Source: a phage
Sequence record: PZ445443.1
Reading direction: 5' to 3' (one strand)
Length of the DNA: 64,000 nt
Shown: one piece after another, positions 10,139 through 61,555 of the stretch
Position numbering within the stretch: position 1 is the stretch's first letter
Layout: each line of letters begins with the position of its first letter
The notes under the pieces: model-generated
What the model saw: the letters and a program-made list of their open reading frames with translations, nothing else
What the model was told of the DNA's origin: nothing
The model's database searches: none
Position numbers and translations under genes: made by a program

Positions 10139-10519
10139 ATGAAAAACACCACCAAGGCCATTGACACCGTTATGTTTAACCTGGTTACATTCCGTGAAGA
10201 TATGAAAGATCTTCCACGTGAAACAGTGTGCGACCATATCGAAAACTATCGCAAACTTATTAAAGAATTGCCATTGAAACGAGATCAGTACGCGGCTAAC
10301 GCCATGCTTAACGCCATGATCAAAAAGATGATTCAGTGTGATTTAACTCTGGCCTATGATTATGCAGGTGGTCGTTTTGCAGTATACAATCAGCCCGTGC
10401 CTGGTATGAGCACCACCGAAGAATTGCACGCGCTCAATCTAAAACAAGATGTGTGGGATAGTATGCCCCGCGTGGTGGTATGGGTAGAAAGCGGAAAGAT
10501 TTACGGCGATAATTTTTAA
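10139..10519 (+). CDS. hypothetical protein
   Basis: Track start 10103 trimmed to ATG 10139 with AGAGGA RBS. Confidence 0.55.
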   Translation: MKNTTKAIDTVMFNLVTFREDMKDLPRETVCDHIENYRKLIKELPLKRDQYAANAMLNAMIKKMIQCDLTLAYDYAGGRFAVYNQPVPGMSTTEELHALNLKQDVWDSMPRVVVWVESGKIYGDNF

Positions 10520-10528
10520 TCAGGTAAC

Positions 10529-10558
10529 AGGCGGCGGCATATTTGCCGCCTTATTGTT
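10529..10558 (+). terminator. intrinsic terminator
   Basis: GGCGGCGGC-atattt-GCCGCC hairpin followed by TTATTGTT. Confidence 0.55.
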
Positions 10559-10586
10559 AATCAGAACTGTAAAAGAGGTACATAGA

Positions 10587-10958
10587 ATGGAATTTATCAT
10601 TTTGGCTATATTAGTTGCCTTGTTTAACGCCTGGATCGCTGGCAAGATGGGTAGATCCGCCTTTTTATGGTTTATTATATCTATCTTCCTGGGAGTGGTT
10701 GCAACTATTGTATTGGTTATCCTTGCAATTGTTGACAAGGGGAATAATAGAAAGGGTAAAGTATTTTCAGACCTGTACGACGCTCAAACGTTTGTCAACG
10801 CCTATTATAGTGATCTTCCAGTCTCCCTACGTTGCAGCCTTGCACAACAGGTTTTCGATGAAGCTAAAACCAGAGATCACGCCCATGAGATTTGTTTAAC
10901 TGAGGCGGATCGCCTATTTGAGAGGAATAGAAAATATGTGGACCAGCCGTTTAAATAA
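10587..10958 (+). CDS. membrane protein (two predicted TM helices)
   Basis: ATG 10587 with AAGAGG RBS; hydrophobic N-terminal half. Confidence 0.55.
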   Translation: MEFIILAILVALFNAWIAGKMGRSAFLWFIISIFLGVVATIVLVILAIVDKGNNRKGKVFSDLYDAQTFVNAYYSDLPVSLRCSLAQQVFDEAKTRDHAHEICLTEADRLFERNRKYVDQPFK

Positions 10959-13518: not shown

Positions 13519-13656
13519 ATGAAAACTTTCAACGCAACAGTCTCGACAATTGGTTATATTATTACAGTACAAGCCGTGGATCTGGTAGCAGCAGCAAACA
13601 AGATTAAAAAGATGATTCCGCCAGGCAGTGAATTTTCCGTTTGGAAAGTAAAATAA
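13519..13656 (+). CDS. small hypothetical protein (45 aa)
   Basis: ATG with GAGGA RBS after promoter and CGGGAAtacTTCCCG hairpin; not in ORF track. Confidence 0.35.
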   Translation: MKTFNATVSTIGYIITVQAVDLVAAANKIKKMIPPGSEFSVWKVK

Positions 13657-13854
13657 ATCTTGACAATAGTTTATTACTTGATAGACTGTATTTCGTAGGG
13701 CGGGGCAATAAGGCAACGCCCATTAATGATGGTAGAATCATGTTAGATAAAATTTTCACGGTTGTAGTAGTTGGCCTGGCATTATAGGTTGGAGTGGTTG
13801 CAACTATGGCTAACATGATCCTATCTTCCCATGGTATCGGTTAAGGTGAATCAA

Positions 13855-14070
13855 ATGATCACGAATAAGACAGGTAAAACGGAATTCTTGCGCGGCTTGC
13901 AGATCGGCAAGCCAGAGATCTGGTATTGCACTAAAACACCACGTGACGAAATGAAAGACTTCACCGCCACGCTGCAACGGGTAAAGATATCCATCACGCA
14001 GAAAAAGGCCTTGATAGTGGTGGAAGGTGAGATCCCTCAAACCGTTGTTATAGTTGAGCGTACAGCATAG
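13855..14070 (+). CDS. hypothetical protein
   Basis: ATG 13855 with AAGGTG RBS (alternative in-frame ATG at 13831); TTGACA promoter at 13660. Confidence 0.45.
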   Translation: MITNKTGKTEFLRGLQIGKPEIWYCTKTPRDEMKDFTATLQRVKISITQKKALIVVEGEIPQTVVIVERTA

Positions 14071-14161
14071 TTTAATTTATAGCGATACCTGAAAATTAAC
14101 CAATAAATCATAAACAGGCGGTTACCGCCGCCTTAAACGTAGCAGAAAGAGGCTAGACACA

Positions 14162-14446
14162 ATGAAAAAGATGATCGCAGTAGTTGCCCTGGTTGTTGGA
14201 CTTAATGCACCTGTAATGGCTAAAGAGCTGGCAAAAGAGGTTAATCTAACGGATATCCATGCCGTCAATCAAATCGGGGTTACTTATCGCTTATGCCTTG
14301 CCGCTAAAACTTTTAATGACGGTACAACAGAGTACTACGGATTCGAAGGTATCCGGTGCGGTGAGCTTGCTCGCGACCTTAAGGAAGATCCAGACCTGGA
14401 AGATCTGCCCATCACCGTAAACGGTAAAGCTTACGTAAACCGTTAA
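14162..14446 (+). CDS. secreted/periplasmic protein (signal peptide)
   Basis: ATG with AAGAGG RBS; N-terminal MKKMIAVVALVVGLNAPVMA signal-like sequence. Confidence 0.55.
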   Translation: MKKMIAVVALVVGLNAPVMAKELAKEVNLTDIHAVNQIGVTYRLCLAAKTFNDGTTEYYGFEGIRCGELARDLKEDPDLEDLPITVNGKAYVNR

Positions 14447-14448
14447 CC

Positions 14449-14583
14449 ATGAGAAAGATAATCATCACCTTGGGGATTGTGGCGGGATCGCTGGCGCTCT
14501 TTCCCCTTATGGTTAGGTATGTGCTGATCAGTATTGTCCTGGTAGTCAGTGATCTATTGGAAACGGTTGGCACCTTGTTTTAA
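14449..14583 (+). CDS. small membrane peptide (44 aa)
   Basis: ATG 2 nt after upstream stop; hydrophobic; not in ORF track. Confidence 0.35.
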   Translation: MRKIIITLGIVAGSLALFPLMVRYVLISIVLVVSDLLETVGTLF

Positions 14584-14595
14584 AGAGCGGTAAAA

Positions 14596-14787
14596 ATGAA
14601 TATCGAACAAGTTAGAAAAGTATTAGCGGTACTGCGTTATCATAATCATAGAAAGGTCATAGACGATCCTGATTATGTTGATTCAAGCCTGGAAGGGGAT
14701 ACACTACAAGCTATAAGTAACATGCAAGAATTGCTAAAGCGCATGACAGAGAAAAACCGACCGGACTACATAGGCGAAAAAATATAA
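14596..14787 (+). CDS. hypothetical protein
   Basis: 63 aa ORF followed by terminator. Confidence 0.45.
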   Translation: MNIEQVRKVLAVLRYHNHRKVIDDPDYVDSSLEGDTLQAISNMQELLKRMTEKNRPDYIGEKI

Positions 14788-15741: not shown

Positions 15742-16161
15742 ATGAATATTAAATCTGATAATCCGGCATATAGCTTTGATAACGCTTTTTGTCACGGTCC
15801 GGCGGCGAAAGGTTTTGAAATTGATGGTAAACTAGTTATTGTCAATGTTGACGGGGAAGAGGTTGCAGTGTATCCGGTGGCAGACGTTAAAAGCCGTTTA
15901 CAATGCCGCATCGATGTTACCGCATATCAGCTTGATCCGGTCCGCGTAGTCTCCCTGGTCCTGGAGGAAGAAATCAAAGCAATGCACCACAGCAATAAGT
16001 TTATCGGTGACGCGCAAGATAATATGAAGGTATGCCGCTATAAAGTTAATGAAGTGCTTAAAGAATATGGATTTAAGGATCTGATGATCAAACGTGATGA
16101 AAAATTTCGTTATCGTAACGACCTGGCAAATCGAATCTATGAAATATACGAATCATTATAA
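15742..16161 (+). CDS. hypothetical protein
   Basis: ATG with AAGAGG RBS; 139 aa. Confidence 0.6.
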   Translation: MNIKSDNPAYSFDNAFCHGPAAKGFEIDGKLVIVNVDGEEVAVYPVADVKSRLQCRIDVTAYQLDPVRVVSLVLEEEIKAMHHSNKFIGDAQDNMKVCRYKVNEVLKEYGFKDLMIKRDEKFRYRNDLANRIYEIYESL

Positions 16162-16179
16162 TTTTTTAACTGAATTATC

Positions 16180-16206
16180 AAGGGGCTTAGGCCCCTTTCT
16201 TTTTGT
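16180..16206 (+). terminator. intrinsic terminator
   Basis: AAGGGGC-tta-GGCCCCTT hairpin followed by TCTTTTTGT. Confidence 0.65.
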
Positions 16207-18665
16207 CTGCTCTTCCCCTACCATAAACGGCCATACATGGCAAGTGGAATAATTGACGAGCCATCAATCCCACACACTGTACAAATATACATGTAAAATA
16301 ACTATTGCATAACTTTTCATTGTGTGGTAGCAGGGCCATTTTTACACGTTTTTCCTTCCAAAATTGCACGTAATGCAGCATTTGCACAAAATTTAACCTG
16401 ATGCATATCTTCAATAGCTTGTCAACAACTAAAAATCTTTATAAGTCATACACTTACATAACTACAAAAGCGTTTTCTACGTGAAAAATCGAGTATAACT
16501 ATAGCCGCCAGACCTCAGAATTTACGTACGCTCGACATTCTATAGCCTGCTAAGCATTTATTCCAACCATAGAATAACGGAATAGTCAATACCTGCATAA
16601 AATAATTATTCGTGTAAACTGCATAACATAAATCGGCCCAGGTGTCAACATTTTTCGTAAACAGTCCGAAATTATCACTATGAGTTATCATAAACAGGGA
16701 AATCTTTAGTCGTCTAATGTTTACTGTACATTACTATACTGACTGGAATCATTAGATGACTAAGAGAAAGATAAGAAATAATTAACAATACAATTATTTT
16801 ATCTGTAACAATAAGGCAACTATGCAAACGAATGGCATGGCGCGACGGAGTCGCGACATAATATAAAAGCAGTAACCATCACCCCCGTGATAGTTTGTCT
16901 GCAAACTATTAATCAGATCATAGTTGCCTTGTATTTAGTTAATCATGACATAACAAGCAAGGCAACTATAGATCTGCTAATAGTTGCCCTGCTTTTATAT
17001 TATGTCATAGAAACACCCGAAGGGGTGACCAAAGGTCACCTGGCATGGCCAGTGAAAGATTATTAACTTGCTAATAGTTATCATGCAAACGAATGGCATG
17101 GCTGATTATCGGTGTGTAAACAGTCAATCATGTAAATGGTTAGCATGTGAACAATCAGGAATGTAAACAATCCAGTGTGTAAACTAATAGGTGTGTAAAA
17201 GTGTCATGTTGTGTCAGTTAGGTCACATTATGTCATATTGTGTCAGACAAGTTTTTCTCCTCTTTGTCAAGTGCTGCATGAAAAATTTACAATCTGGTAT
17301 GGTAGCATTTTTGCGGCCCTGTTTACATTCAGGGGTGTATGTATAATCCTTGTTGTGTGGGCGTTTAGACGTCTGGACGGTCAGAAGTCTGCAGGTTAAT
17401 ATCTAATCTATTGGCTGCTAACTATATCCCACACAAATAGTAAGAAATATGATTGTTATATGCGTAAACTGTAACTCATGTTATCAATCCCTGTATGTAT
17501 CGCCAGTGGTGCGCATAATGGGTATTATGTTAAATTGCCCGTAATGATAAAGGTTCTCACAATGATAGGTATTCTCATTCACCCCCACAAAATAGATTGC
17601 AAATGTTGTGCCACTGTGTGAACGGCCTAGCCTATTAATTTGCCTCACTGCCTCGATATTTGAGAATTGTTATAAGAATGAGAAGTATTCCCATTTCGTC
17701 CGCCTGGCAGCACTCCTGTAGGTCAGGTCAAAATCGTGGTAGAACTGGACCTGTTCAGATATTTCTGGCTGACTCTTCAGGTCTGTGTGGGAAAAGCCAA
17801 CCTCTCCGGCGGGGCAGGGGATAGGTCAATTAAAAAATTTACGTGGTGTATGAAGCGCTCTTCAGGTAAGGCAGGTATTATGGGATGAAACCCTCTTCAG
17901 GCAATGATATTTGTGGGTGTGATATTTGCTGGAAAGCCAGATATGACGGGACTCCCGGCGGGGCAGGGGTGGTACAGACAGGGAAAATATGAAGGATGTG
18001 GTTGGGTAGATTGATCAGACAGGTAGAGTATGGAATATGTTACAAGTATGTTAAATATGGAGGTTGAATATCTGTAGGATTTGTGTGTAAAATCAAAGAC
18101 TTAAGTGGTGTTGTGGTATTTTCTATAAATAATTCAAGTTTAATAGGTGATATTTGTCTCTATCCGCTTTGTGTGGTAAACAGATTCAGATGAGATTGGT
18201 TTACAAGTGTATACATAATATACAAATTAAAGATACAAGAAACCCCCCTCCCCCTTCGGCTACCATTCACCTTTTCCTCTGACTGGTACTTAAACACTTA
18301 TTCAGACTCTTCAGGTTATCACCTATATATCATATGGCAGTGACTGGTGTCCTCCGGCCCCTCTTTCGTCACCCGTCCGCTTCGCCATGCTAATGCCATA
18401 GCCAATGGTTCGGTTGTTCACCCTGTTCACTCAGGTGTATCTCCATACCCCTTCAAACCGAAGAGAACAGAAAACCCGAATTACTCGGTAAAAGAAAAGA
18501 GAAGAACTTAATTTTATCAGGATAGGCAAGAATGTCAAGGCATGACTGCTCACTAAACAAGCAAACAGTCATGTGTGGGAGGTAAGTGATTGTGGTGGTA
18601 GGAAATTTAGTTGAAAGATGTGTTATAGGTGCTTCCAGCACTTTAGCCGGGCAGCTAATTGTGTG
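16207..18665. other. 2.5 kb ORF-free repeat-dense region between convergent gene blocks (candidate origin, packaging/injection-control region or ncRNA locus)
   Basis: No credible ORF with RBS; 20-bp direct repeat ATGCAAACGAATGGCATGGC (16822, 17083); TAGTTGCC iteron-like motifs; palindromes CGCGACGGAGTCGCG and GGTGACCaaaGGTCACC; GTGTGTAAAC run about 17120-17200; CTC(C/T)CGGCGGGGCAGGGG twice (17802, 17952); CTCTTCAGG 5-6 times. Confidence 0.6.
18511..18539 (-). promoter_or_regulatory. sigma70-like promoter on minus strand (TTGACA-17-TAAAAT) firing into the ORF-free region
   Basis: Reverse complement of 18534-18539 is TTGACA, of 18511-18516 is TAAAAT, spacer 17 bp; no CDS downstream. Confidence 0.45.
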
Positions 18666-21356: not shown

Positions 21357-21644
21357 TCATAGTGCCTCTAAGATTTCATATCCTTCGGGTCGGAATACAA
21401 GCCACTCCGTGGCTCCGTTTGGTCGATACGCTTTATACAGAACAACCTGATCTCGGCACATGCACATAGCTACATAGTTTTCATCCACACCTGCAGCCTG
21501 CATTGCAGCTTCTTCTCCGGCAACTGCTTTGCTTACAACCTCCTTGGTAGGCAGGTGTGCGATCAGCTCGTCACCATCATTAATTCCAAAATGACTGAGT
21601 TCTCCATTGGTATCTTTAATCTTAATCTTAACCAGATCTTTCAT
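21357..21644 (-). CDS. small acidic protein
   Basis: 95 aa ORF, tightly packed. Confidence 0.5.
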   Translation of the reverse strand: MKDLVKIKIKDTNGELSHFGINDGDELIAHLPTKEVVSKAVAGEEAAMQAAGVDENYVAMCMCRDQVVLYKAYRPNGATEWLVFRPEGYEILEAL

Positions 21645-21973
21645 TAGTCTTCCTCCAGGTTCAAAGGCCCTAAGATTTCATATGCCAGATTAGAAGTTAC
21701 CAGAGGGTCTTCTGCATCTTTAGTATTGTACCACCCGTGAATAACCAGAGTCCCACTTTGTTTCATGTCCAACTGGAACTCTTCTGCCGTTTCCTCATCC
21801 AGCTCCAAGATTTCCATGAGGTATTTGATGTTAGGAAGGTATGCAGCTGTTACAGTTCCCTCCACCAAACCTTCGGGCCAACCTACATCCGGATGACAAG
21901 TAGGAACCAAGTTGGTCAACTTAATGGTGTACGCTTTTTCTGCACGAGCCTTCAGTAACGGGTCAATCTTCAT
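21644..21973 (-). CDS. hypothetical acidic protein
   Basis: 109 aa; start overlaps upstream stop. Confidence 0.5.
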   Translation of the reverse strand: MKIDPLLKARAEKAYTIKLTNLVPTCHPDVGWPEGLVEGTVTAAYLPNIKYLMEILELDEETAEEFQLDMKQSGTLVIHGWYNTKDAEDPLVTSNLAYEILGPLNLEED

Positions 21974-22323
21974 TATTCGTCCTCCTCTTCGGTGCCTGCT
22001 TCCAGTAATAAGTTAAGAATATCTTCTGCACAAGGCTCATAGAACTCTTGGCCTTCATTATCGATGATTTTGTAGTCATCTCCGCGAATAATCAGAGGAT
22101 CACTCTCAAAATTATCGAGACCTTTAACAACGACAACACGATCGATTGCCATCATTGTAAGAACTTTATCGACATCTTCCTCTGCTACACCATACTGCAG
22201 CAGAATGTCTTTGGTAGGAGGAACAGCATCCACCACAACACCGTTACCAAAACCTTCCGGTAAGTTAGCTAAAATATCTTCCGGAACCACACTAACATCA
22301 AAACCAGTAATTTCTACTTTCAT
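21973..22323 (-). CDS. small acidic protein (MKVEI-start family)
   Basis: 116 aa, acidic tail. Confidence 0.5.
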   Translation of the reverse strand: MKVEITGFDVSVVPEDILANLPEGFGNGVVVDAVPPTKDILLQYGVAEEDVDKVLTMMAIDRVVVVKGLDNFESDPLIIRGDDYKIIDNEGQEFYEPCAEDILNLLLEAGTEEEDE

Positions 22324-22584
22324 TTACAGCACCTCTTCGTCAACTACTTCATAAAAATGGCCTGGGATTGCAATAGCGTTCTCACCTTCACCTACAAACA
22401 CAGTTCCGTCAAGAATCAACATCATAAGAGTTTCTGGAATATCCTCTTCCTGAACGTTGCCAAAACCTTTAATCAGCTCGTAGGTTGGAAGATTTACCTC
22501 TAAGATGTCACCATCTTTAGAGCGGAAATCAACACCATCCTGAATCTCTGCCATTTCAAGGTTTTTCAGTTTAATCTTCATCAA
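22324..22584 (-). CDS. small acidic protein (ends YEVVDEE)
   Basis: 86 aa; shares N- and C-terminal motifs with neighbours. Confidence 0.5.
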   Translation of the reverse strand: MMKIKLKNLEMAEIQDGVDFRSKDGDILEVNLPTYELIKGFGNVQEEDIPETLMMLILDGTVFVGEGENAIAIPGHFYEVVDEEVL

Positions 22585-22660
22585 TCAGTCTCCCGTCTTG
22601 TTAAGATGAAGGTATTATTTCACACAGGGTTGGTGTTGTCAACACCTGTGTGCAAGAAAA

Positions 22661-23053
22661 TTACTGAAACAGTGCGGATAAATTACCTTCTGGTGGGAAC
22701 TTATCTGCCAAAAACGGTGTTAGCACAGTAGCCTTCTGAAGATCTGGGGTCCACTCGTTGTTCAGAACATCCCAGTAGTACGCAATGTTGCTGTGTGGGT
22801 GCCGCATTACGAACTTTTTCCCTTCGTAGTCATCTGAAACCTCTACAGAAGAAATGACAACAGAATCTTCAAGTTCTTCATAGAAAGATCCGCCTTCAAA
22901 TTTCCAACGAGATGCAAGAGCCCCTGCCTTGAACGCTGCAGATAACGGACTGTCGGCAAGAACATACATTTCTTGCACTCTGTCGCTGCGATCTTTGCTT
23001 CTTACGTTGTATACAGTATCTGAGCTATACTCAACACGGTATAGGCTTACCAT
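22661..23053 (-). CDS. hypothetical protein, paralog of 24860..25258
   Basis: Shared motifs HP.S...YW...W.TP and TP.L with 24860..25258. Confidence 0.55.
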   Translation of the reverse strand: MVSLYRVEYSSDTVYNVRSKDRSDRVQEMYVLADSPLSAAFKAGALASRWKFEGGSFYEELEDSVVISSVEVSDDYEGKKFVMRHPHSNIAYYWDVLNNEWTPDLQKATVLTPFLADKFPPEGNLSALFQ

Positions 23054-23385
23054 TACCGCACCTCCTCAATAACTTCCACATCTGAACCCACCACAAATGC
23101 AAAAGGACAGGTTTCATGAAAGACATCCGGATCGCCGCCAAGCTTGCTAACAATTTCTCCACCACTAATAAACACAAGCTCACCGATATTCATCAGATTG
23201 CTGAAATAGTATCCATAATGATTAAAGAATGCAGCAGGGTCAGGTAGACTAGTAGCCTCAAGCACTACATCGGTTGAGGTTACTTTCTTATCATAGCCTC
23301 TCGCCTTCTGAGATGCAAGATCTGCAGAATCCTCAGGCGACCGGAGATGCACAGGAATTGTTTCACCAATAAAGCGTACTTTCAT
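23053..23385 (-). CDS. small acidic protein family member
   Basis: Trimmed to MKVRFIGE start consistent with family N-termini; ends VEVIEEVR. Confidence 0.5.
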   Translation of the reverse strand: MKVRFIGETIPVHLRSPEDSADLASQKARGYDKKVTSTDVVLEATSLPDPAAFFNHYGYYFSNLMNIGELVFISGGEIVSKLGGDPDVFHETCPFAFVVGSDVEVIEEVR

Positions 23386-23389
23386 ATTA

Positions 23390-23653
23390 TCACCCAACAA
23401 CCATAGCTTCAAAAGGGGTCATGAACGAATAAACGGCATCATCATCTGCTTCAGGGAATGCTCCCAAAGACTTCATGTCAGATCCCTTGACAAATACAAG
23501 GTTTTGATCAAAGGCTTCTTGGGGATCAATCCGATACATATTTCGTAGAATATCTCCTACCTCCTCATCAAGAGGTGAGTATGCTGTGCACGTTTTTCCG
23601 ATCAAGCTTTGAGAATCAGGGTATCCACCTGAAGTTTTAAAATAAACAATCAT
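23390..23653 (-). CDS. small protein, VKG-DL-AGA motif family
   Basis: Motif VFVKGSDMKSLGA shared with 25271, 25515 and 29170 ORFs. Confidence 0.5.
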   Translation of the reverse strand: MIVYFKTSGGYPDSQSLIGKTCTAYSPLDEEVGDILRNMYRIDPQEAFDQNLVFVKGSDMKSLGAFPEADDDAVYSFMTPFEAMVVG

Positions 23654-23744
23654 ATAGTATCACCTCTGGTAAGAGATTGGGATTCCTTTCCCACAAATAA
23701 TTACAAACCTTCCTTGTCGAGGAAGTATGCTAATCCAAGCAGGA

Positions 23745-24014
23745 TTATTCCTCTACAATCTCATACACATCCGGAGTTACAATCAACTCTTCTCCGTTAC
23801 CCGGTGCAACAAACACCACCAAACCTTCAGGTGTGTGCTTTTTAGCCATCTCGATAACATCTTCTCGCAGAGCTGGCTCCATCAGATCAAAACCTTCACC
23901 CAGGGCATCACGAACCACCTTCATATAGTCAACTGGTTGTGCTTCGACAATCATGCCTTCAACCAGTCCACAGTTTTTGTCTGCCAGCTCAGTTTTGAAT
24001 AATTTAATTTTCAT
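23745..24014 (-). CDS. small acidic protein (ends YEIVEE)
   Basis: 89 aa, family-like termini. Confidence 0.5.
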   Translation of the reverse strand: MKIKLFKTELADKNCGLVEGMIVEAQPVDYMKVVRDALGEGFDLMEPALREDVIEMAKKHTPEGLVVFVAPGNGEELIVTPDVYEIVEE

Positions 24015-24041
24015 TTAGAGGTCTCCTCAATTATTTGATAT

Positions 24042-24142
24042 TAATAGCCGTAACCTAACACATTAACTACAACTGCGATTGCAAACATAATTTCAAAGCA
24101 TGCAATCTCTACATTTGGGACTAATTTCTTAATCACGCCCAT
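24042..24142 (-). CDS. small membrane peptide (33 aa)
   Basis: ATG with GGAG/GAGGTG RBS; hydrophobic; not in ORF track. Confidence 0.3.
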
Positions 24143-24151
24143 TGTAGCACC

Positions 24152-24469
24152 TCATTCTCCAAAGTCAATCTTTACTTTGCCTTTCCCCTTACCTTTCTTT
24201 CCACCGCATTTAGCCAGCTGACGTGCTGCAACATCTACCATACGGTCAGTTGCCTCGTAAGCATCACTACCTTTAGCCTTGGCAATAACTTCTTTTCCAG
24301 AAGTGTCAAAAATGAACGCCATAACTTCCTGGTGATCATTTTCAACTTTTACACTTACACGTGCATGATTTACAGAAGGATGTAGACGCTCCAGTTTTGA
24401 CATTTTGTGGGAAATGAAAGACACCATGCCTTCGGTGATTTCTACGTTGCCAGTGATCTCAATTTGCAT
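24152..24469 (-). CDS. hpf: ribosome hibernation promoting factor / ribosome-associated inhibitor homolog with Lys/Gly-rich tail
   Basis: MQIEITGN-VEITE, KLE, VKVE and ARQLAK segments align with the bacterial HPF/YfiA family; C-terminal GGKKGKGKGKVK extension. Confidence 0.7.
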   Translation of the reverse strand: MQIEITGNVEITEGMVSFISHKMSKLERLHPSVNHARVSVKVENDHQEVMAFIFDTSGKEVIAKAKGSDAYEATDRMVDVAARQLAKCGGKKGKGKGKVKIDFGE

Positions 24470-24551
24470 AACGTGTTCCTTTTAAAGAAGAGGGAATAAC
24501 TCTCTCTTTGAAAACAATAATACTATAGCTGAAGCGTTGTGTCAACAGTTT

Positions 24552-24842
24552 TTACAGATTGTTGTCGATAGTATTTAAAATATCCACAGCAAGATTTGCC
24601 ATTTTTCGAACATACTCTGCAAACTCAACAGGATCCTTGATCAAAGAATTTACAGGGTCGTACCCTAGAGCGTTCAAAATGGCTGCAGCATCTACAACCT
24701 TTTCATCATTTGCAAAGATCTCTCCGTCAAACTTATAGGTCCATTTTGAGTCAATCTTGGCAGGGCATGGCTGGTCCATGCTTGTTACACCATCGTCTTT
24801 AACCTCTCCTGCGTTATCAATATTCAGAACTAAATCCATCAT
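24552..24842 (-). CDS. hypothetical acidic protein
   Basis: 96 aa ORF. Confidence 0.5.
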   Translation of the reverse strand: MMDLVLNIDNAGEVKDDGVTSMDQPCPAKIDSKWTYKFDGEIFANDEKVVDAAAILNALGYDPVNSLIKDPVEFAEYVRKMANLAVDILNTIDNNL

Positions 24843-24859
24843 AGTGGCACCTCACTGTT

Positions 24860-25258
24860 TCAGTTTAGCTTTTCTTCAACAACCCCATAGCTCGGGGCAG
24901 AGTCAAGAGCTTTTTGGTTTAAAAGTGGTGTAGCAGAATCTGCAAACGGTGTCCAAGTTTTTGTTCTGGCATTCCAGTAATGCTTCACTCTGGAATCTGG
25001 ATGCACTATAACAAAAACTTTTTCACTTGTCAACACATTAATTTCTTCTACACCCTTGCTGATAATTTCTCCGTCATAGCCCCCAGTCTGGTATCCTTCG
25101 TACCAGGTTCTTGCATAGGCATAGCCAGCCTGCCAGCATGCAGCCTCCTCCGAGGTGGAGACTACGTAGAAGTCTTTCTCAAATTCTGGAATACGCCCTT
25201 GCTTTACGCTCCAAGCTCCGCGAATTTTCATTGTAACTTTAAACAGTTTATTTTTCAC
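24860..25258 (-). CDS. hypothetical protein, paralog of 22661..23053
   Basis: Shared motifs with 22661..23053. Confidence 0.55.
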   Translation of the reverse strand: MKNKLFKVTMKIRGAWSVKQGRIPEFEKDFYVVSTSEEAACWQAGYAYARTWYEGYQTGGYDGEIISKGVEEINVLTSEKVFVIVHPDSRVKHYWNARTKTWTPFADSATPLLNQKALDSAPSYGVVEEKLN

Positions 25259-25270
25259 AACGGTTACCCA

Positions 25271-25525
25271 TCACAGCTCTACAATATCTGCATCTGACCC
25301 TACCCCAAAGGCATAATAGGACTCTTCCCCGAAATAATATTCAGGTGCACCAGCGGTGATCAGGTCTGATCCCAAGATAAACACCACGTTGTGGCCTACA
25401 TAACTGTGATGTTGCCGCACAGGATCATCCCACGGCAACCCTTCAAAGTATACCGCAGGAACTACCTTTCCCTTCAGGAAGGATTGTCCCAAGTAGACGT
25501 TAGAATCAAGAATTTTAACCTTCAT
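25271..25525 (-). CDS. small protein, VKG-DL-AGA motif family
   Basis: MKVKILD start; motif ILGSDLITAGAPE. Confidence 0.5.
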   Translation of the reverse strand: MKVKILDSNVYLGQSFLKGKVVPAVYFEGLPWDDPVRQHHSYVGHNVVFILGSDLITAGAPEYYFGEESYYAFGVGSDADIVEL

Positions 25526-25742
25526 GATCGTCCTCCACTACCTCTACATCCTCGCCTAGGGCAAAGTTGTAGGTCCACTGACTGTCAAAGCAGTCCTGAG
25601 GTGCACCAGCGGCAATAAGATCTGCTCCTTTTATTTTTAAAAGGTCAGGGTAATCTTCGTTAGGGACAGCAGTAAACACTTTTCCTACTAAAGGCTCCTG
25701 ACCAATATAGAAGCTTGAATCTAAAACTTTAACTTTCATCAA
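25515..25742 (-). CDS. small protein, VKG-DL-AGA motif family
   Basis: MMKVKVLD start; motif IKGADLIAAGAPQ; ends EVVEDD. Confidence 0.5.
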   Translation of the reverse strand: MMKVKVLDSSFYIGQEPLVGKVFTAVPNEDYPDLLKIKGADLIAAGAPQDCFDSQWTYNFALGEDVEVVEDDHEG

Positions 25743-26026
25743 CGGTCTCCATCAGGTGGTTGTGGGACGTAAACACTGTTACGAATATCGTCCGCAGTAT
25801 AGTAATAAGTGTCTCCAACCCTATCTCTGGCTGCAATGTACTCTGCTATACCAATAAGTGCCATTGATTTGGTGGCGTATCTTCCCAGCTCGTTAGCTCC
25901 CCAGTAGAATTTAGACCAATAGGGAATAAGACCGAACAAATATACCTTTTGACGAACTTCCCAGTAAGTGCCTTTCCCGACAAGTTTAAACTCAACTTCA
26001 CCACTGTTAATCTTTTTCATTATCAA
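25739..26026 (-). CDS. hypothetical protein
   Basis: 95 aa ORF, overlapping starts/stops. Confidence 0.5.
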   Translation of the reverse strand: MIMKKINSGEVEFKLVGKGTYWEVRQKVYLFGLIPYWSKFYWGANELGRYATKSMALIGIAEYIAARDRVGDTYYYTADDIRNSVYVPQPPDGDR

Positions 26027-26319
26027 TCTCCCTCCACCGTGGTTGGATTGTCAGTAAGAAATTGAGCATTAGCTGGAGGCACGCCTGACATTTTCCACAC
26101 AACCATAAGTTTGTAACCAGGCACTCTATTAAGTGCAGATCGAGTAGAGTTTGTGCACGTATATTTTCGCTTTCCAAACCCGTTCTCCATCATAATCCAG
26201 TACCCAGTATCTTTGTCACCAGGTATTGGTAGACCACCTTCATCAACCCACTGAATGGACCACGGCACGATGGCTACAGCTTTATATTTAAACTTTTTAA
26301 ACCACTCAAAAAGTTTCAT
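26023..26319 (-). CDS. hypothetical protein
   Basis: 98 aa ORF. Confidence 0.5.
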   Translation of the reverse strand: MKLFEWFKKFKYKAVAIVPWSIQWVDEGGLPIPGDKDTGYWIMMENGFGKRKYTCTNSTRSALNRVPGYKLMVVWKMSGVPPANAQFLTDNPTTVEGD

Positions 26320-26322
26320 AAT

Positions 26323-26412
26323 TCAGCCTCGCATAGACATAATCACTATAAACAGGCAAACAATGAATCCGAATGCCACGCCACCCATAAACGTTAATAT
26401 TGATGCAATCAT
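26323..26412 (-). CDS. small membrane peptide (29 aa)
   Basis: ATG with GAGG RBS; stop 3 nt before next start; hydrophobic. Confidence 0.3.
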   Translation of the reverse strand: MIASILTFMGGVAFGFIVCLFIVIMSMRG

Positions 26413-26414
26413 AG

Positions 26415-26600
26415 TCAATCAGCCTCGCTTGGCAATTCTTCCACCTTAACATGCCGAAAAGTGTTACCGTAATGGTTGATCCATGACATCAGCTCACTTT
26501 CTTGCTCTTCCTCTGGGATGAACTCTCGAATACTGACAAGTTTTAAGAAAACCCAATCACAATCTGCACCCATTCTACCAGACAGACAATAGTGCTTCAT
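26415..26600 (-). CDS. hypothetical protein
   Basis: 61 aa ORF. Confidence 0.4.
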   Translation of the reverse strand: MKHYCLSGRMGADCDWVFLKLVSIREFIPEEEQESELMSWINHYGNTFRHVKVEELPSEAD

Positions 26601-26619
26601 AAAAACCCTCCACCCTGGT

Positions 26620-26820
26620 TTAGAATACTGCCTCTTTTAATGATCCAAGGAGCAGCAGGTGTGAAATCTGATCCACATTCATGGTAGATTCAATCTCCTC
26701 TCTTTTGAAAGGTTCTCGGCAAAACAGTACTACATTCGGGTTTTCGCTACGCACTATATAATACAGATCGTTCAAATCATTCTCATAGTAGGTATTAAAT
26801 TTAAGAATTTTGTCACTCAT
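26620..26820 (-). CDS. hypothetical protein
   Basis: 66 aa ORF. Confidence 0.45.
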   Translation of the reverse strand: MSDKILKFNTYYENDLNDLYYIVRSENPNVVLFCREPFKREEIESTMNVDQISHLLLLGSLKEAVF

Positions 26821-27104
26821 TTTCTAATCCTCTTCTTAGATTTTTGGGGAGAAACGCTTTCTGCAATACGAGACAAACGTTCTTCTGAAGCCTTGCCTAT
26901 TCCAGGTTTTTTGAGTGGATTATCTTTATGACCACAATCCAATTGGATATTGGATACCTCTCCAACCTTGTAAGTCAATTCTAGCAAAAGGTTGTCGTCC
27001 TTGTCAAATGTTCTTACGATAAATTTTTTATCGTTCTCCTGAACTTCGTATCTGGTACCTGCAGTATACAGCATGGTGCCATCAGCATAGGATATCCAGA
27101 TCAT
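26817..27104 (-). CDS. hypothetical protein
   Basis: 95 aa; basic C-terminus. Confidence 0.5.
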   Translation of the reverse strand: MIWISYADGTMLYTAGTRYEVQENDKKFIVRTFDKDDNLLLELTYKVGEVSNIQLDCGHKDNPLKKPGIGKASEERLSRIAESVSPQKSKKRIRK

Positions 27105-27448
27105 TGAACCTCCTTCTGCTGCAACAGCATTAACTCTTTGTTAGAGATCTTTACTGCTGTTTTTATTGTTCCATCTTTACGGAACCACGACCAGAACTCT
27201 ACAGTGTCCCCACTATCAAGCAAAGCATACCCGTGGTAGAAGTCTTTGTCCTTGGACAGTTTCTCATCTATGTCTGCATCGACACATTCGTGATCCATAG
27301 CATTTTGCCTGAATGCATCGGTTATGCCAATGCACGCCTTGCTCTCAAAACTGGCATATCCGATATCTTTTAATTCAGTTTCCCAAACCCAGAACCCTAT
27401 AAAAGCCACAACAGCTACCCACATTAATATCGATTTAATCTTTGACAT
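27101..27448 (-). CDS. membrane-anchored protein
   Basis: N-terminal TM helix. Confidence 0.5.
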   Translation of the reverse strand: MSKIKSILMWVAVVAFIGFWVWETELKDIGYASFESKACIGITDAFRQNAMDHECVDADIDEKLSKDKDFYHGYALLDSGDTVEFWSWFRKDGTIKTAVKISNKELMLLQQKEVQ

Positions 27449-27508
27449 TCTCTCTACCTCTTTCTTAGTTTATTTAGTTATGGCACATCCTTTGTGCCTT
27501 ATTGCACG

Positions 27509-27970
27509 CTACTTAAACAACAGTTCAAGATAGTGCAAAATTAACAGAAGTTGAATTACGCCTAGCACCACGGCAAGTATGTTAATCTTAGAATCAAAAA
27601 ACTTCTTAACTTTTACCCTAAAAGGCTCCTTGATGTCCTTTACGATCCTATTTATAGATGATTTCATATCCCTGATTACCATCCTAAACATTAGAGACGG
27701 ATCTTCCTTCTCTGTAATAGAATCGAAAACATACTCTCTTCGGTCATAAGGACCTCCAGATCTGCGTATTAACCTCTCCACAGAGACCTCGTACGACACA
27801 CCTGTAACGTAATCATCTATGACAAGTAGTGACGGGTCTTTATCATCTAAGGGTATCAAAGTTATCTTTCCAGATTTTGTTAAAATTTCTCCTTTTTCAA
27901 GCAAGGTGTACCAATGCTCTCTACCAAGATTGTTGAGGCACGTTTTTACATATTTAACAAACATCGTCAC
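27509..27970 (-). CDS. protein with C-terminal TM helix
   Basis: 153 aa; hydrophobic C-terminal segment. Confidence 0.5.
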   Translation of the reverse strand: MTMFVKYVKTCLNNLGREHWYTLLEKGEILTKSGKITLIPLDDKDPSLLVIDDYVTGVSYEVSVERLIRRSGGPYDRREYVFDSITEKEDPSLMFRMVIRDMKSSINRIVKDIKEPFRVKVKKFFDSKINILAVVLGVIQLLLILHYLELLFK

Positions 27971-28170
27971 CCCTCATCGCACGTCTGATATAACCATTCT
28001 ATGAAATCTTGATACCATTCGCCCTCTGAGCGCTCCGTAGGCCAATAATCTTCACCCTCTCGTGCATTAAAATCTGAGTATTCAACTTTCCACTCCTTTA
28101 CCAGTTCGTGTAGAAGGTTTTCAGCCTGTTCTAAGGATTTATTTTTTGTCATTACTGTCCCCTTTTTCAA
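27967..28170 (-). CDS. hypothetical acidic protein
   Basis: 67 aa. Confidence 0.45.
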   Translation of the reverse strand: MKKGTVMTKNKSLEQAENLLHELVKEWKVEYSDFNAREGEDYWPTERSEGEWYQDFIEWLYQTCDEG

Positions 28171-28258
28171 GATAATTATACATTAGCGCCGCACCACCCA
28201 AAATGGCTACCAGCAGTAATACTCCTGAGAGCATTTCAATAAACATGGCTTGAAACAT
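28139..28258 (-). CDS. small membrane peptide (39 aa)
   Basis: ATG with AGAGGGG RBS; hydrophobic; overlaps downstream start; not in ORF track. Confidence 0.3.
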   Translation of the reverse strand: MFQAMFIEMLSGVLLLVAILGGAALMYNYLEKGDSNDKK

Positions 28259-28372
28259 TAGAAGGTCCCCTCTAATTTCACGCACCATTTTAAATACACA
28301 CTCTTTTCCCATGAAGATACTGAACTAAGGTCTGTATAGAATGCAATCTCCCTAAGAACAGTATAAACAGTT

Positions 28373-28609
28373 TCAGTCACTGTTACCATTCTTATCTGCC
28401 TCCTTCATTTTTCTGACGGTTTTACAGTGATCTACCAAGCACATAACAACAATGAAGAGAACGACAGGCCAAAAAGGTGCGGCAGTGATTATAATTATAA
28501 AGTCGTCAAACTTCACCCTTCGTGTGAACACGATGCATACACCTGTCAAGAATACAGCCGTTATAACGGCTATTACCAGGTAACCTATTAGCACAACATT
28601 TATACTCAT
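28373..28609 (-). CDS. membrane protein (two TM helices)
   Basis: 78 aa, two hydrophobic helices. Confidence 0.5.
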   Translation of the reverse strand: MSINVVLIGYLVIAVITAVFLTGVCIVFTRRVKFDDFIIIITAAPFWPVVLFIVVMCLVDHCKTVRKMKEADKNGNSD

Positions 28610-28639
28610 TAGTCCTCCCTTTGTAGGTTAAATTATATA

Positions 28640-29173
28640 CTACAGATGGTTGCTGATGGTGTCAAGAAAATTATCTCGTTCTTTCTCGGAGTTTTCACGG
28701 GTGTAGCTGAAAAACATATCTAGAATAACCTTATTGATATATTCCAGCTCCTCTGTGTTCAGGTACTTAGCAGGATCTACAATGACATCCCAAATATCAT
28801 ACAGACCACACTCATGATATCCATAACGCCACTCAATTGTCAAGCTGAGCGGCAAATCTTTACCGTCACAAACAACCTTCCATCTACATATGTTGGTATC
28901 TGGGCGTATCTGTGCACGGTATACCTGTACAAAATCCAATTTGAATTTGAGGTATTCGTCATGCAATTTAAGCACAAAGCTCTCGATTTGTGGAGACACT
29001 TTTGCAGCAAACTGTGCGTATTTGTATTTGCACTGGATGATCTTTCTGCGTTTTGCAGTTAAATTTTTTGCCGCCAGTTGTTCTTCAGTGTATCTCCACC
29101 TACGATCAATAAACGCAACAGGGTCTTTGTCCCCATAGAGGTCTTCCCAGTTAATCAGAAGCATACCTGTCAC
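28640..29173 (-). CDS. hypothetical protein
   Basis: 177 aa ORF. Confidence 0.55.
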   Translation of the reverse strand: MTGMLLINWEDLYGDKDPVAFIDRRWRYTEEQLAAKNLTAKRRKIIQCKYKYAQFAAKVSPQIESFVLKLHDEYLKFKLDFVQVYRAQIRPDTNICRWKVVCDGKDLPLSLTIEWRYGYHECGLYDIWDVIVDPAKYLNTEELEYINKVILDMFFSYTRENSEKERDNFLDTISNHL

Positions 29174-29403
29174 TCCTCCACAACTTCAAGGCCTTTGCCG
29201 CCTCGCTCTGGCAGATTACTTAAAGACAGGTAATACGTATAGTCAGGAGAGATCCTGCCAGACTCTGCACCTGCAGCTAGTAAATCTTTTCCCTTAACCA
29301 TGACAGCATTATCGTTTGCAGATAGTCGTTTTGCTTCCACAATTTTACCAACGCAGTCAACCAAGGAAGGGTACCCTAAATCTGTAAGAAATTTAACTTT
29401 CAT
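29170..29403 (-). CDS. small protein, VKG-DL-AGA motif family
   Basis: MKVKFLTD start; motif VMVKGKDLLAAGAE; ends LEVVEE. Confidence 0.5.
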   Translation of the reverse strand: MKVKFLTDLGYPSLVDCVGKIVEAKRLSANDNAVMVKGKDLLAAGAESGRISPDYTYYLSLSNLPERGGKGLEVVEE

Positions 29404-60742: not shown

Positions 60743-60817
60743 GCCCTGTTAGCTTAGTGGATAAAGCAGCGGCCTTCTAAGCCGTTGACACTGGTTCGAG
60801 TCCAGTACGGGGTGCCA
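60743..60817 (+). tRNA. tRNA-Arg (anticodon TCT), CCA encoded
   Basis: Hand-folded cloverleaf: 7-bp acceptor stem (two G-U), anticodon loop CTTCTAA, T-loop TTCGAGT. Confidence 0.7.
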
Positions 60818-60821
60818 AATT

Positions 60822-60908
60822 GGGGAGTTATCCCGTAGAGGTAGCGGTGTAGACTGTAAATCTATTGTCATTGCGACTCGGGTGGTTCGACTCCACCACT
60901 CCCCACCA
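60822..60908 (+). tRNA. tRNA-Tyr (anticodon GTA), long variable arm, CCA encoded
   Basis: Perfect 7-bp acceptor stem GGGGAGT/ACTCCCC; anticodon loop CTGTAAA; T-loop TTCGACT; 87 nt. Confidence 0.7.
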
Positions 60909-61022
60909 AATTTATATTTTTAGATGCATAAATAATACAGATAATGGCATTGATATTTATCGTCGTTTATACTAGTCACTAACTGCTCGAAAATCAGTGT
61001 CATTATCAGTATAATTTATAAA

Positions 61023-61113
61023 GGAGGGTAGGGAGCAATGGTGCTCAAGCGGTCTTGAAAACCGTCCCGTTGAGGATGACTCGATGATGGTTCGATTCCA
61101 TTACTCTCCGCCA
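61023..61113 (+). tRNA. tRNA-Ser (anticodon TGA), long variable arm, CCA encoded
   Basis: Acceptor GGAGGGT/ACTCTCC; anticodon loop CTTGAAA; T-loop TTCGATT; 91 nt. Confidence 0.65.
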
Positions 61114-61211
61114 CATTGTTGACCTTGTAATTAAGCGAAAGTCGGAAGCAGAACCGGATTATCAAATGTTACAGTCGTCATCGCCGACTAGCAACATGGT
61201 CAACATACTGA

Positions 61212-61308
61212 GCTAGGTAAGCCCTTTGGCAAGGGCGAGGATTTTTAATCCTGAAAATAGACGAGGTAGTCGTTGAATACATAGGTGGTTCGATTCCATC
61301 ACCTAGCA
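61212..61308 (+). tRNA. atypical tRNA-like gene (possible UUU anticodon, oversized variable region, no encoded CCA)
   Basis: Perfect acceptor stem GCTAGGT/ACCTAGC and T-arm GGTGG-TTCGATT-CCATC; anticodon arm non-canonical (AGGA-TTTTTAA-TCCT); 29 nt between anticodon and T stems; 97 nt. Confidence 0.4.
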
Positions 61309-61315
61309 CCTTTTT

Positions 61316-61391
61316 GCTGATGTAGCACAATCGGTAGTGCAATTGATTTGTAATCAATAGGTTGTAGGTTCAAGTCCTGCCATCAGCACCA
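61316..61391 (+). tRNA. tRNA-Thr (anticodon TGT), CCA encoded
   Basis: Perfect acceptor stem GCTGATG/CATCAGC; anticodon stem ATTGA/TCAAT with loop TTTGTAA; T-loop TTCAAGT. Confidence 0.75.
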
Positions 61392-61392
61392 A

Positions 61393-61467
61393 GGCCCTGT
61401 AGCTGGAAGGTTCAAGCAAGCGACTCATAATCGCCAGACGGTGGTTCAATTCCACCCAGGGCCACCA
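61393..61467 (+). tRNA. tRNA-Met or tRNA-Ile2 (anticodon CAT), CCA encoded
   Basis: Perfect acceptor stem GGCCCTG/CAGGGCC; anticodon loop CTCATAA; T-loop TTCAATT. Confidence 0.7.
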
Positions 61468-61478
61468 AATAGTAAATA

Positions 61479-61555
61479 CTCCGCGTAGCTCAGCTTGGTA
61501 GAGCGCCTGATTTGGGATCAGGAGGTCGAGTGTTCGAATCACTCCGTGGAGACCA
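61479..61555 (+). tRNA. tRNA-Pro (anticodon TGG), CCA encoded
   Basis: Acceptor CTCCGCG/CGTGGAG; anticodon stem CCTGA/TCAGG with loop TTTGGGA; T-loop TTCGAAT. Confidence 0.7.

Follow-up and report, generated by a model that had tools for sequence, protein, structure and literature searches.

The region between positions 21,357 and 29,403 of the phage sequence record PZ445443.1 is densely packed with small genes, which raises the question whether these genes are related to each other, how they came to lie side by side and what their products could do during infection. A preliminary description of the window (the whole analysed stretch of 64,000 nucleotides) had proposed expanded families of small acidic proteins, including a duplicated cassette, and had connected them with host interaction or anti-defence. 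Analysis of this array revealed 12 small genes of three paralogous families, A (five members), B (five members) and C (two members), within 8 kb of a non-structural transcription unit. This description, including the SH3-like barrels predicted for A and B, the growth of the array by duplication and the combination of purifying selection with dispensability, is held with high confidence. Together with a mechanism in which the A and B proteins would bind host proteins, it forms our best explanation as a whole, which we put forward tentatively, at slightly below an even chance.

Approximately 8 kb around the array showed 95-97% identity to Escherichia phages phita32, PDX, YN3 and rV5, which indicates that the stretch belongs to a member of the genus Vequintavirus (rV5-like). 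All open reading frames (ORFs) named in the preliminary description have an annotated counterpart in rV5, where the array region comprises gp118-gp158, nearly all labelled 'hypothetical protein'; the rV5 gene names are used here (Table 1). Every gene from about 18.7 kb to 56 kb, including those at 21357-29403, is located on the minus strand, in agreement with the GC skew. In rV5, genes 82-163 form one transcription unit, shared with the nucleotide-metabolism and replication genes, and sigma70-type promoters are predicted throughout this unit (PMC3606486).

Along the direction of transcription, the array begins with an A gene (gp122), 12 unrelated small genes, an A-A-C block (gp135, gp136 and gp137) and a gene of 96 amino acids (aa) at 24552-24842. 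The second half consists of promoter P144, a gene for a hibernation-promoting factor (HPF, gp139), the 34-aa gp140, a B gene (gp141), a second A-A-C block (gp142-gp144), promoter P150 and four successive B genes (gp145-gp148). Inside the blocks, genes overlap or are separated by gaps of 0-12 nucleotides (nt), so they are made together and very likely co-translated. No further members of A, B or C were found elsewhere in the window or in the full 138-kb rV5 genome.

Table 1. Features of the small-gene array, with positions in the 64,000-nt window of PZ445443.1
Feature	Position	Strand	Remarks
Family A, gp122 ortholog	29170..29403	-	77 aa; lone copy, upstream of both clusters; phrog_5009 E = 1.9e-35; hhalign to gp135 99.3%; motif GKDLLAAGA
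Family A, gp135	25515..25739	-	74 aa; first gene of cassette 1; phrog_5009 E = 1.8e-38; modelled protein
Family A, gp136	25271..25525	-	84 aa; second gene of cassette 1; 11-nt overlap with gp135; phrog_5009 E = 3e-32
Family C, gp137	24860..25258	-	132 aa; last gene of cassette 1; pI 7.8; phrog_7379 E = 4.3e-74
Family B, gp141	23745..24014	-	89 aa; downstream of the HPF gene, upstream of cassette 2; hhalign to gp145 94.8%, to gp148 88.1%
Family A, gp142	23390..23653	-	87 aa; first gene of cassette 2; insertion of about 19 aa; phrog_13920, and phrog_5009 at E = 1.2e-4; motif GSDMKSLGA
Family A, gp143	23053..23385	-	110 aa from MKVRF (start as in the rV5 annotation); second gene of cassette 2; largest insertion of family A
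Family C, gp144	22661..23053	-	130 aa; last gene of cassette 2; 1-nt overlap of its start with the gp143 stop; phrog_7379 E = 2.3e-64
Family B, gp145	22324..22581	-	85 aa; heads the four tandem B genes; modelled protein; BLAST to gp141 E = 0.002
Family B, gp146	21973..22323	-	116 aa; pI 4.05; long acidic tail; to gp145 BLAST E = 5.6e-6, hhalign 94.1%
Family B, gp147	21644..21973	-	109 aa; most divergent B member; hhalign to gp146 78.2%, to gp148 46.9%
Family B, gp148	21357..21644	-	95 aa; intact here, split into gp148 and gp149 in rV5; hhalign to gp141 88.1%, to gp146 83.9%
Sigma70-type promoter, rV5 P144	24517..24545	-	11/12 consensus match; annotated in rV5; precedes HPF, gp141 (B), gp142-gp143 (A) and gp144 (C)
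Sigma70-type promoter, rV5 P150	22614..22642	-	11/12 consensus match, extended -10; annotated in rV5; upstream of the four tandem B genes
30-nt repeat D2	25343..25372		83% identical to 25599-25628; encodes the GxDLIxAGA motif in tandem gp136/gp135
Block absent from BASEL phage EduardKellenberger (Bas59)	24946..28767		gp124-gp136 (both cassette-1 A genes) and most of gp137; blastn breakpoints

Three families and their predicted folds

All-against-all BLAST was performed with the 33 minus-strand proteins encoded between 19.9 and 30.9 kb, and subfamily profiles including database orthologs and two diverged relatives were compared by hhalign. The four ORFs at 23390, 25271, 25515 and 29170, for which a relationship had been proposed earlier, proved to be related by both methods. 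The strongest pair was gp136 and gp135 (41% identity, BLAST E = 5e-16, hhalign 99.5%), followed in BLAST by gp135 and gp122 (E = 1.5e-8). The more diverged gp142 matched gp136 in BLAST at E = 0.006 and, in hhalign, gp122 at 85.5% and gp136 at 83.8%. A fifth member, gp143, could be added to this family A (BLAST to gp136 E = 5.7e-5; hhalign 95.4% to gp136 and 90.6% to gp135). All A members are joined by hhalign in one network through links of 78-99.5% probability, the weakest pairs gp142-gp143 (6%) and gp122-gp143 (11%) being connected via gp135 and gp136. The internal motif on which the original grouping was based, written as GxD[LM]xxxG[AGV], occurs in exactly those four out of 480 six-frame ORFs, while the MKVK start ascribed to all of them does not apply to the ORF at 23390, which starts with MIVYF. 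The longer members (gp136, gp142 and gp143) carry their insertions at one common position in the alignment, that of gp136 being 14 aa between strands 2 and 3. The core of the family is phrog_5009, with full-length matches for gp122, gp135 and gp136, a weak match for gp142 and none for gp143. The A proteins of the window are full-length members of PHROG 5009, 13920 and 13661, all of 'unknown function', a division which keeps gp142 and gp143 apart from the other A proteins.

A second group of ORFs with common starts and ends had also been pointed out. It corresponds to family B, whose members begin with MK(I/V)K and end with YE(I/V)VEE, although the range given for it was too narrow, as four of the five genes lie below position 22661. 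Most of the joining hhalign links in the B network reached 71-95%, that between gp147 and gp148 only 47%; the pairs gp141-gp146, gp141-gp147 and gp145-gp147 are connected solely through other B members. BLAST additionally related gp146 to gp148 (E = 0.002). The B proteins matched PHROG 11868, 12359 and 12155 ('unknown function') over their full length, and PHROG groups no B members together. One database protein carrying DUF7399 (P0092) turned out to be a chimera containing only the C-terminal half of gp147 and is uninformative on the family. Family C consists of the two proteins of about 130 aa which had been called clear paralogs; this was confirmed by 27% identity over 110 residues (BLAST E = 5e-10), by hhalign (98.8%) and by PHROG itself, which pairs them in phrog_7379 ('unknown function') across 131/131 profile positions. 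Full-length PHROG memberships across A, B and C had E-values from 1e-32 to 1e-76, and these PHROG families give no information on fold or function.

Database searches for function remained negative. Pfam, NCBIfam and PDB-sequence searches with the single proteins and with the A, B and C alignments gave nothing significant, and a resemblance of ORF142 to a protein of Listeria phage A118, mentioned in a GenBank note of rV5, was not recovered as a tblastn match at E < 0.01. The designation as small acidic proteins is correct for ten of the 12 proteins, with isoelectric points (pI) of 4.05-4.8; it does not fit gp137 (7.8) and gp122 (5.4). The net charge is -6 to -22 in most members, several of which have an acidic C-terminal tail.

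Short ORFs can share motifs by chance, or may not be genes at all. This explanation could draw on the weak single pairs within family A and on the A-B comparisons, which by hhalign do not exceed 7.8%. Within each family it is refuted: significant profile matches connect all A proteins, and likewise all B proteins, into single-linkage networks, the PHROG groups agree, the structure models are confident with matching topologies, orthologs are 29-77% identical and the ratio of nonsynonymous to synonymous substitution rates (dN/dS) is well below 1. Alignment thus confirmed the families, and the A and B models share the SH3-like fold class, so that the motifs noticed earlier have practically no chance of being coincidental; chance similarity remains as an explanation for the likeness between A and B only.

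AlphaFold (AF2) models were made for one A protein (gp135) and one B protein (gp145). The gp135 model has a predicted local distance difference test score (pLDDT) of 93 and strands at residues 2-5, 21-23, 33-37, 56-61 and 65-69; the gp145 model (pLDDT 89) has strands at 2-5, 26-28, 61-63, 70-72 and 77-79 and a two-helix insertion between strands 2 and 3. Both models display the SH3-like small beta-barrel fold class, with five antiparallel strands in a partly open barrel ordered b1-b2-b3-b4-(3-10 or short helix)-b5. On the basis of these models the A and B proteins (74-116 aa) are predicted to be stand-alone SH3-like five-stranded barrels. Known SH3-like barrels, such as the KOW domains of Spt5, NusG and L24, PsaE, eukaryotic SH3 and bacterial SH3b domains, also consist of five strands with 50-60 core residues. 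The A and B proteins differ from these in being acidic instead of basic. None of them had any Pfam match at E up to 0.1, KOW (PF00467) included, and their pI of 4.05-5.4 does not agree with a basic nucleic-acid-binding surface; for eukaryotic and bacterial SH3 domains (PF00018, PF07653, SH3b) there was no Pfam or NCBIfam match and no PDB sequence match at E < 0.01. Their own features are the GxDLxxxGA turn-helix after strand 3 in A and the two-helix insertion in B.

A Foldseek search of BFVD with the A model returned uncharacterised proteins of 65-120 aa with template modelling (TM) scores of 0.7-0.87 and a probability of about 1.0. Among them are Q76ZG7 of RB49, A0A0K1LND4 of Merlin and proteins of Sf20, CS01 and ZCKP1, i.e. 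of T4-like and other enterobacterial phages; these are 14-25% identical to A, and just two matches had E < 1e-3. As all of these matches are unannotated, they extend the distribution of the fold and not its function.

Families A and B have in common the fold class, the position of the insertion, the locus, MK(V/I)K in the first strand and (V/I)VEE in the last. Among 25 comparisons between A and B subfamily profiles the best, gp122 against gp141, reached a probability of 7.8% (P = 0.0044), and the pooled A and B profiles could be aligned colinearly over 76-79 columns (P = 0.006). Since these scores are not significant, we regard common descent of A and B as evenly balanced between yes and no.

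The strong negative charge of most members brings to mind DNA mimics of the Ocr, ArdA or Arn type, which block restriction enzymes or DNA-binding proteins, and the acidic C-terminal tails would suit such a role. The modelled fold is nevertheless a compact barrel of 74-85 aa and would not offer an elongated DNA-like surface, no Pfam or PDB sequence match to known mimics was obtained, and rV5-like phages are strongly restricted by EcoRI, EcoRV and EcoCFT_II, and often by EcoP1. DNA mimicry is largely contradicted by these data and is considered very improbable.

Growth, loss and conservation of the array

Read along the transcribed direction, two A genes lie directly before each C gene, so that the order A-A-C occurs twice; in a permutation of 25 genes this arrangement had P = 3.8e-4. 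The duplicated cassette proposed in the preliminary description is supported to this extent, whereas a clean one-to-one pairing of the A counterparts was not obtained. In the hhalign comparisons gp143 is closest to gp136, as expected under a block duplication, but for gp142 the scores with gp122, gp136 and gp135 are about equal, and gp135 and gp136 are closest to one another, which could reflect later recombination within this tandem pair. Old tandem duplications built the array, probably together with one block duplication of A-A-C. The cassette duplication is old; no remnant of it was found at the DNA level except for one 30-nt repeat (D2 in Table 1).

This repeat is the likely site of recombination between gp135 and gp136. 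A natural chimera (P0015), present on contigs of about 133 kb, consists of the gp135 N-terminus and the gp136 C-terminus joined exactly at the motif, and a fusion of gp137 and gp138 (P0040) also exists. Both show ongoing unequal recombination and deletion in the array. Truncated or chimeric and fused alleles on genome-length contigs include P0015, P0032, P0040 and P0070-P0076, and in rV5 the last B gene is split in two.

Two uncultured, syntenic relatives provide further information on the history of the blocks. In L008 (124 kb) the order is A ... A-A, no first C gene (C1) and then HPF, B, A-A-C2 and B-B-B-B, C2 being the C gene of the second cassette. In L011 (139 kb) an A gene is followed further on by C1, which has two unrelated genes directly before it, HPF and the A-A pairs are absent, and four contiguous B genes follow. 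The C genes are of two types: P0097 of L011 shares 37% identity with gp137, and P0096 of L008 shares 37-40% with gp144, compared to 25-31% between the types. Gene content and C types indicate that units were gained and lost as blocks, and the contiguous B genes of L011 fit an insertion of A-A-C2 into a B array, although polarity is not provable from three lineages. Orthologs in these relatives showed 29-77% identity. Three genes of their syntenic regions are of separate interest. L011 contains a TnpB-like gene (OrfB_IS605 and Cas12f1-like_TNB, 13532-14644) and a T5orf172/MUG113 endonuclease-like gene (1657-2556), both absent from the window. L008 carries a 98-aa gene with the Pfam domain Phage_P22_Y8K6 (10467-10763) between C2 and the B array, where the window has promoter P150 alone.

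The array is widely conserved within the genus. At least 80% of the 8-kb region was covered in 114 of 121 matching records, and orthologs of the three members searched were conserved in 117-125 phage records each; gp141 is 95-100% conserved in 117 records. Among the matching records, 18 (MG0656xx) are named 'Campylobacter phage' with Campylobacter jejuni as host; they are 95% identical to rV5-like coliphages over the array region, and the host label is doubtful. Homologs of A, B and C retrieved by word-index search lay almost only on contigs of Vequintavirus length. Family B is confined to Vequintavirus among isolates, and family C was found by tblastn only in Vequintavirus records (117-118, mostly with two copies each). 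An exhaustive search of 1.84 billion representatives with a hidden Markov model of C gave 6 hits, of which P0096 and P0097 are genuine diverged orthologs; a scan of IMG/VR for P0096 gave no match. Another hit, the 1900-aa SLH/FN3-repeat protein P0099 (E = 1.7e-7), was not counted as homology, as its E-value arises solely by adding up eight repeat matches, each below threshold, to a 'YYWxV' strand motif; the highest-scoring single domain has 14.9 bits.

Family A also occurs, as a single copy, in mEp021-like lambdoid phages and in many E. coli prophages, 43-49% identical to gp122 by tblastn and located between the Q antiterminator and holin genes among small unannotated accessory ORFs. These homologs (mEp021_40 and its E. 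coli prophage relatives, P0031 with 309 member sequences) belong to family A by sequence and have the same length and motif; they differ from the array genes in their location in temperate phages, their single copies and the absence of B or C neighbours.

Pooled dN/dS, computed against rV5 and against Bas59, was 0.08-0.14 for A, 0.10-0.18 for B and 0.13 for C, compared to 0.05-0.08 for neighbouring genes. Values so far under 1 indicate real, constrained genes, and within the genus purifying selection without visible diversifying selection was seen. Single members and one whole block can nevertheless be lost from viable phage. Bas59 lacks the block listed in Table 1 and instead carries a fused ORF made of the gp123 N-terminus and the gp137 C-terminus. 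In the raw data of the BASEL collection it plates on 11 defence systems like its relatives Bas57 and Bas58: RexAB, PifA, Old and Tin have no effect on it, EcoKI and EcoCFT_I a mild one, EcoRI lowers its plating about 1e-4, EcoRV, EcoCFT_II and Fun/Z block it, and on EcoP1 it is variable. Its small host-range panel is also that of its relatives. Cassette 2 may compensate for the loss of cassette 1 in this phage.

The block missing from Bas59 also includes the gene at 27509-27970 (minus strand), the ortholog of rV5 ORF133 (locus tag gp128). It lies in this non-structural region, and rV5 ORF133 was among the predominant proteins detected by virion mass spectrometry (PMC3606486).

Possible role of the encoded proteins

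The mechanism best supported by these results, which we advance as no more than possible, is stoichiometric binding of host proteins. The A and B proteins would bind host proteins stoichiometrically in the pre-late phase of infection, and the paralogs would have diverged toward different or variant targets. The co-duplicated C protein could serve either as a partner or as another binder directed at the same pathway; the targets could be housekeeping machinery, in the context of host takeover, or immunity proteins. This reading is suggested by the missing catalytic signature, the acidity, the binding-type fold, the host-type promoters and the diversification driven by duplication. The SH3-like scaffold is typically a protein or ligand binding module, and the low pI makes these proteins too acidic for nucleic-acid binding.

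Several points weigh against host-protein binding. The 'early' timing is deduced from promoter sequence and gene position. A literature search on Vequintavirus early genes, paralogs and anti-defence gave no paper on these genes and no partner, phenotype or expression datum, and the rV5 genome paper does not mention them. The low dN/dS and the near-universal presence in the genus fit a phage housekeeping function as well as host targeting, and family C has no relatives outside this phage clade (rV5-like phages and the two uncultured relatives). A stronger version, in which A and B together form a ten-member array of single origin, made up of free-standing SH3-like protein traps that would each block a different host factor or immune sensor, with the C proteins as co-evolving partners duplicated along with an A pair, is regarded as quite unlikely. 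If true, it would represent a repertoire of binders that the phage encodes on a single scaffold, a principle that to our knowledge has not been described for lytic coliphages.

The suggestion that local family expansion marks host-interaction or anti-defence proteins found no direct support. In its specific form, with each paralog neutralising a different immune protein and the expansion reflecting an arms race, it agrees with the small size and mostly acidic nature of the proteins, the sigma70-type promoters, the lineage-specific expansion, the individually dispensable members and the position of the A homologs in an accessory-gene slot of lambdoid prophages; SH3-like binders could also plausibly block sensors. 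Arguments against it are the lack of similarity to any characterised family and the near-invariance within the genus (dN/dS 0.08-0.18, no diversifying selection). Searches of Pfam, NCBIfam, PDB sequences and PDB folds disclosed no match to a known anti-defence protein (Ocr, ArdA, Acr, Tad, Gad and similar). Moreover, Vequintavirinae are described as exceptionally susceptible to restriction-modification systems and all fail on Fun/Z (PMC8594841), and the defence profile of Bas59 is unchanged without cassette 1, an effect which cassette 2 could mask. A specific anti-defence role is considered rather unlikely on this balance.

Alternatively, the proteins could serve processes of the phage itself, as adaptors or chaperones for replication, transcription switching or translation, maybe together with HPF. 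The short ribosome hibernation-promoting factor (gp139) is encoded at 24152-24469 (minus strand), between the two A-A-C cassettes and behind its own sigma70-type promoter, and matches TIGR00741 with 50 bits (cut-off 40.9). Its location between the cassettes, the absence of both A-A pairs from L011, which also lacks HPF (in a comparison of three lineages only), the transcription unit shared with metabolism and replication genes, and purifying selection on core genes similar to that on their neighbours speak for such a role. On the opposite side, the acidic pI argues against binding of rRNA or DNA, Pfam gave no KOW match, cassette 1 is dispensable in viable Bas59, and family A occurs in lambdoid phages without HPF; the co-occurrence with HPF could be coincidence. 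We consider a phage-internal role unlikely.

For the preferred reading, binding of host proteins, the small, acidic, early-acting inhibitors of model phages (T7 Ocr, Gp2 and Gp0.4, T4 AsiA and Arn, and the anti-CRISPRs) offer a comparison, being generally known to be alike in size, charge, absence of enzymatic motifs and host-type promoters. They differ in that no sequence or fold relationship to A, B or C was found, and we know of none that occurs as a 5+5+2 paralog array. In large lytic phages, arrays of small early proteins restricted to one lineage are familiar.

Few E. coli phages are isolated as often as those of the rV5 type, which find use in therapy and biocontrol work, and about half of their genes are unannotated, including all A, B and C genes. 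Twelve 'hypothetical proteins' can now be reduced to three families and, at the level of the predicted fold, to one scaffold and one orphan. With one block naturally dispensable, they form a compact, testable gene set with a ready natural deletion strain. Should the proteins bind host proteins, the known phage factors for takeover or counter-defence would gain a new scaffold; if they are not binders, the result is a tidy annotation of an ordinary lineage-specific expansion.

Other features of the window

Two further regions of the window deserve mention. A stretch of about 2.5 kb at approximately 16160-18660 is poor in ORFs (none longer than 75 aa) and has the lowest GC content of the window (0.389). 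The GC skew changes sign here, where two transcription units meet, and the region could hold an origin or unannotated RNAs; a search of it against Rfam gave no family match. Its counterpart is labelled 'non-coding' in the rV5 paper (PMC3606486). On the plus strand, a cluster of six tRNA genes was identified by Rfam at 60743-61552, corresponding to the annotated tRNA cluster of rV5.

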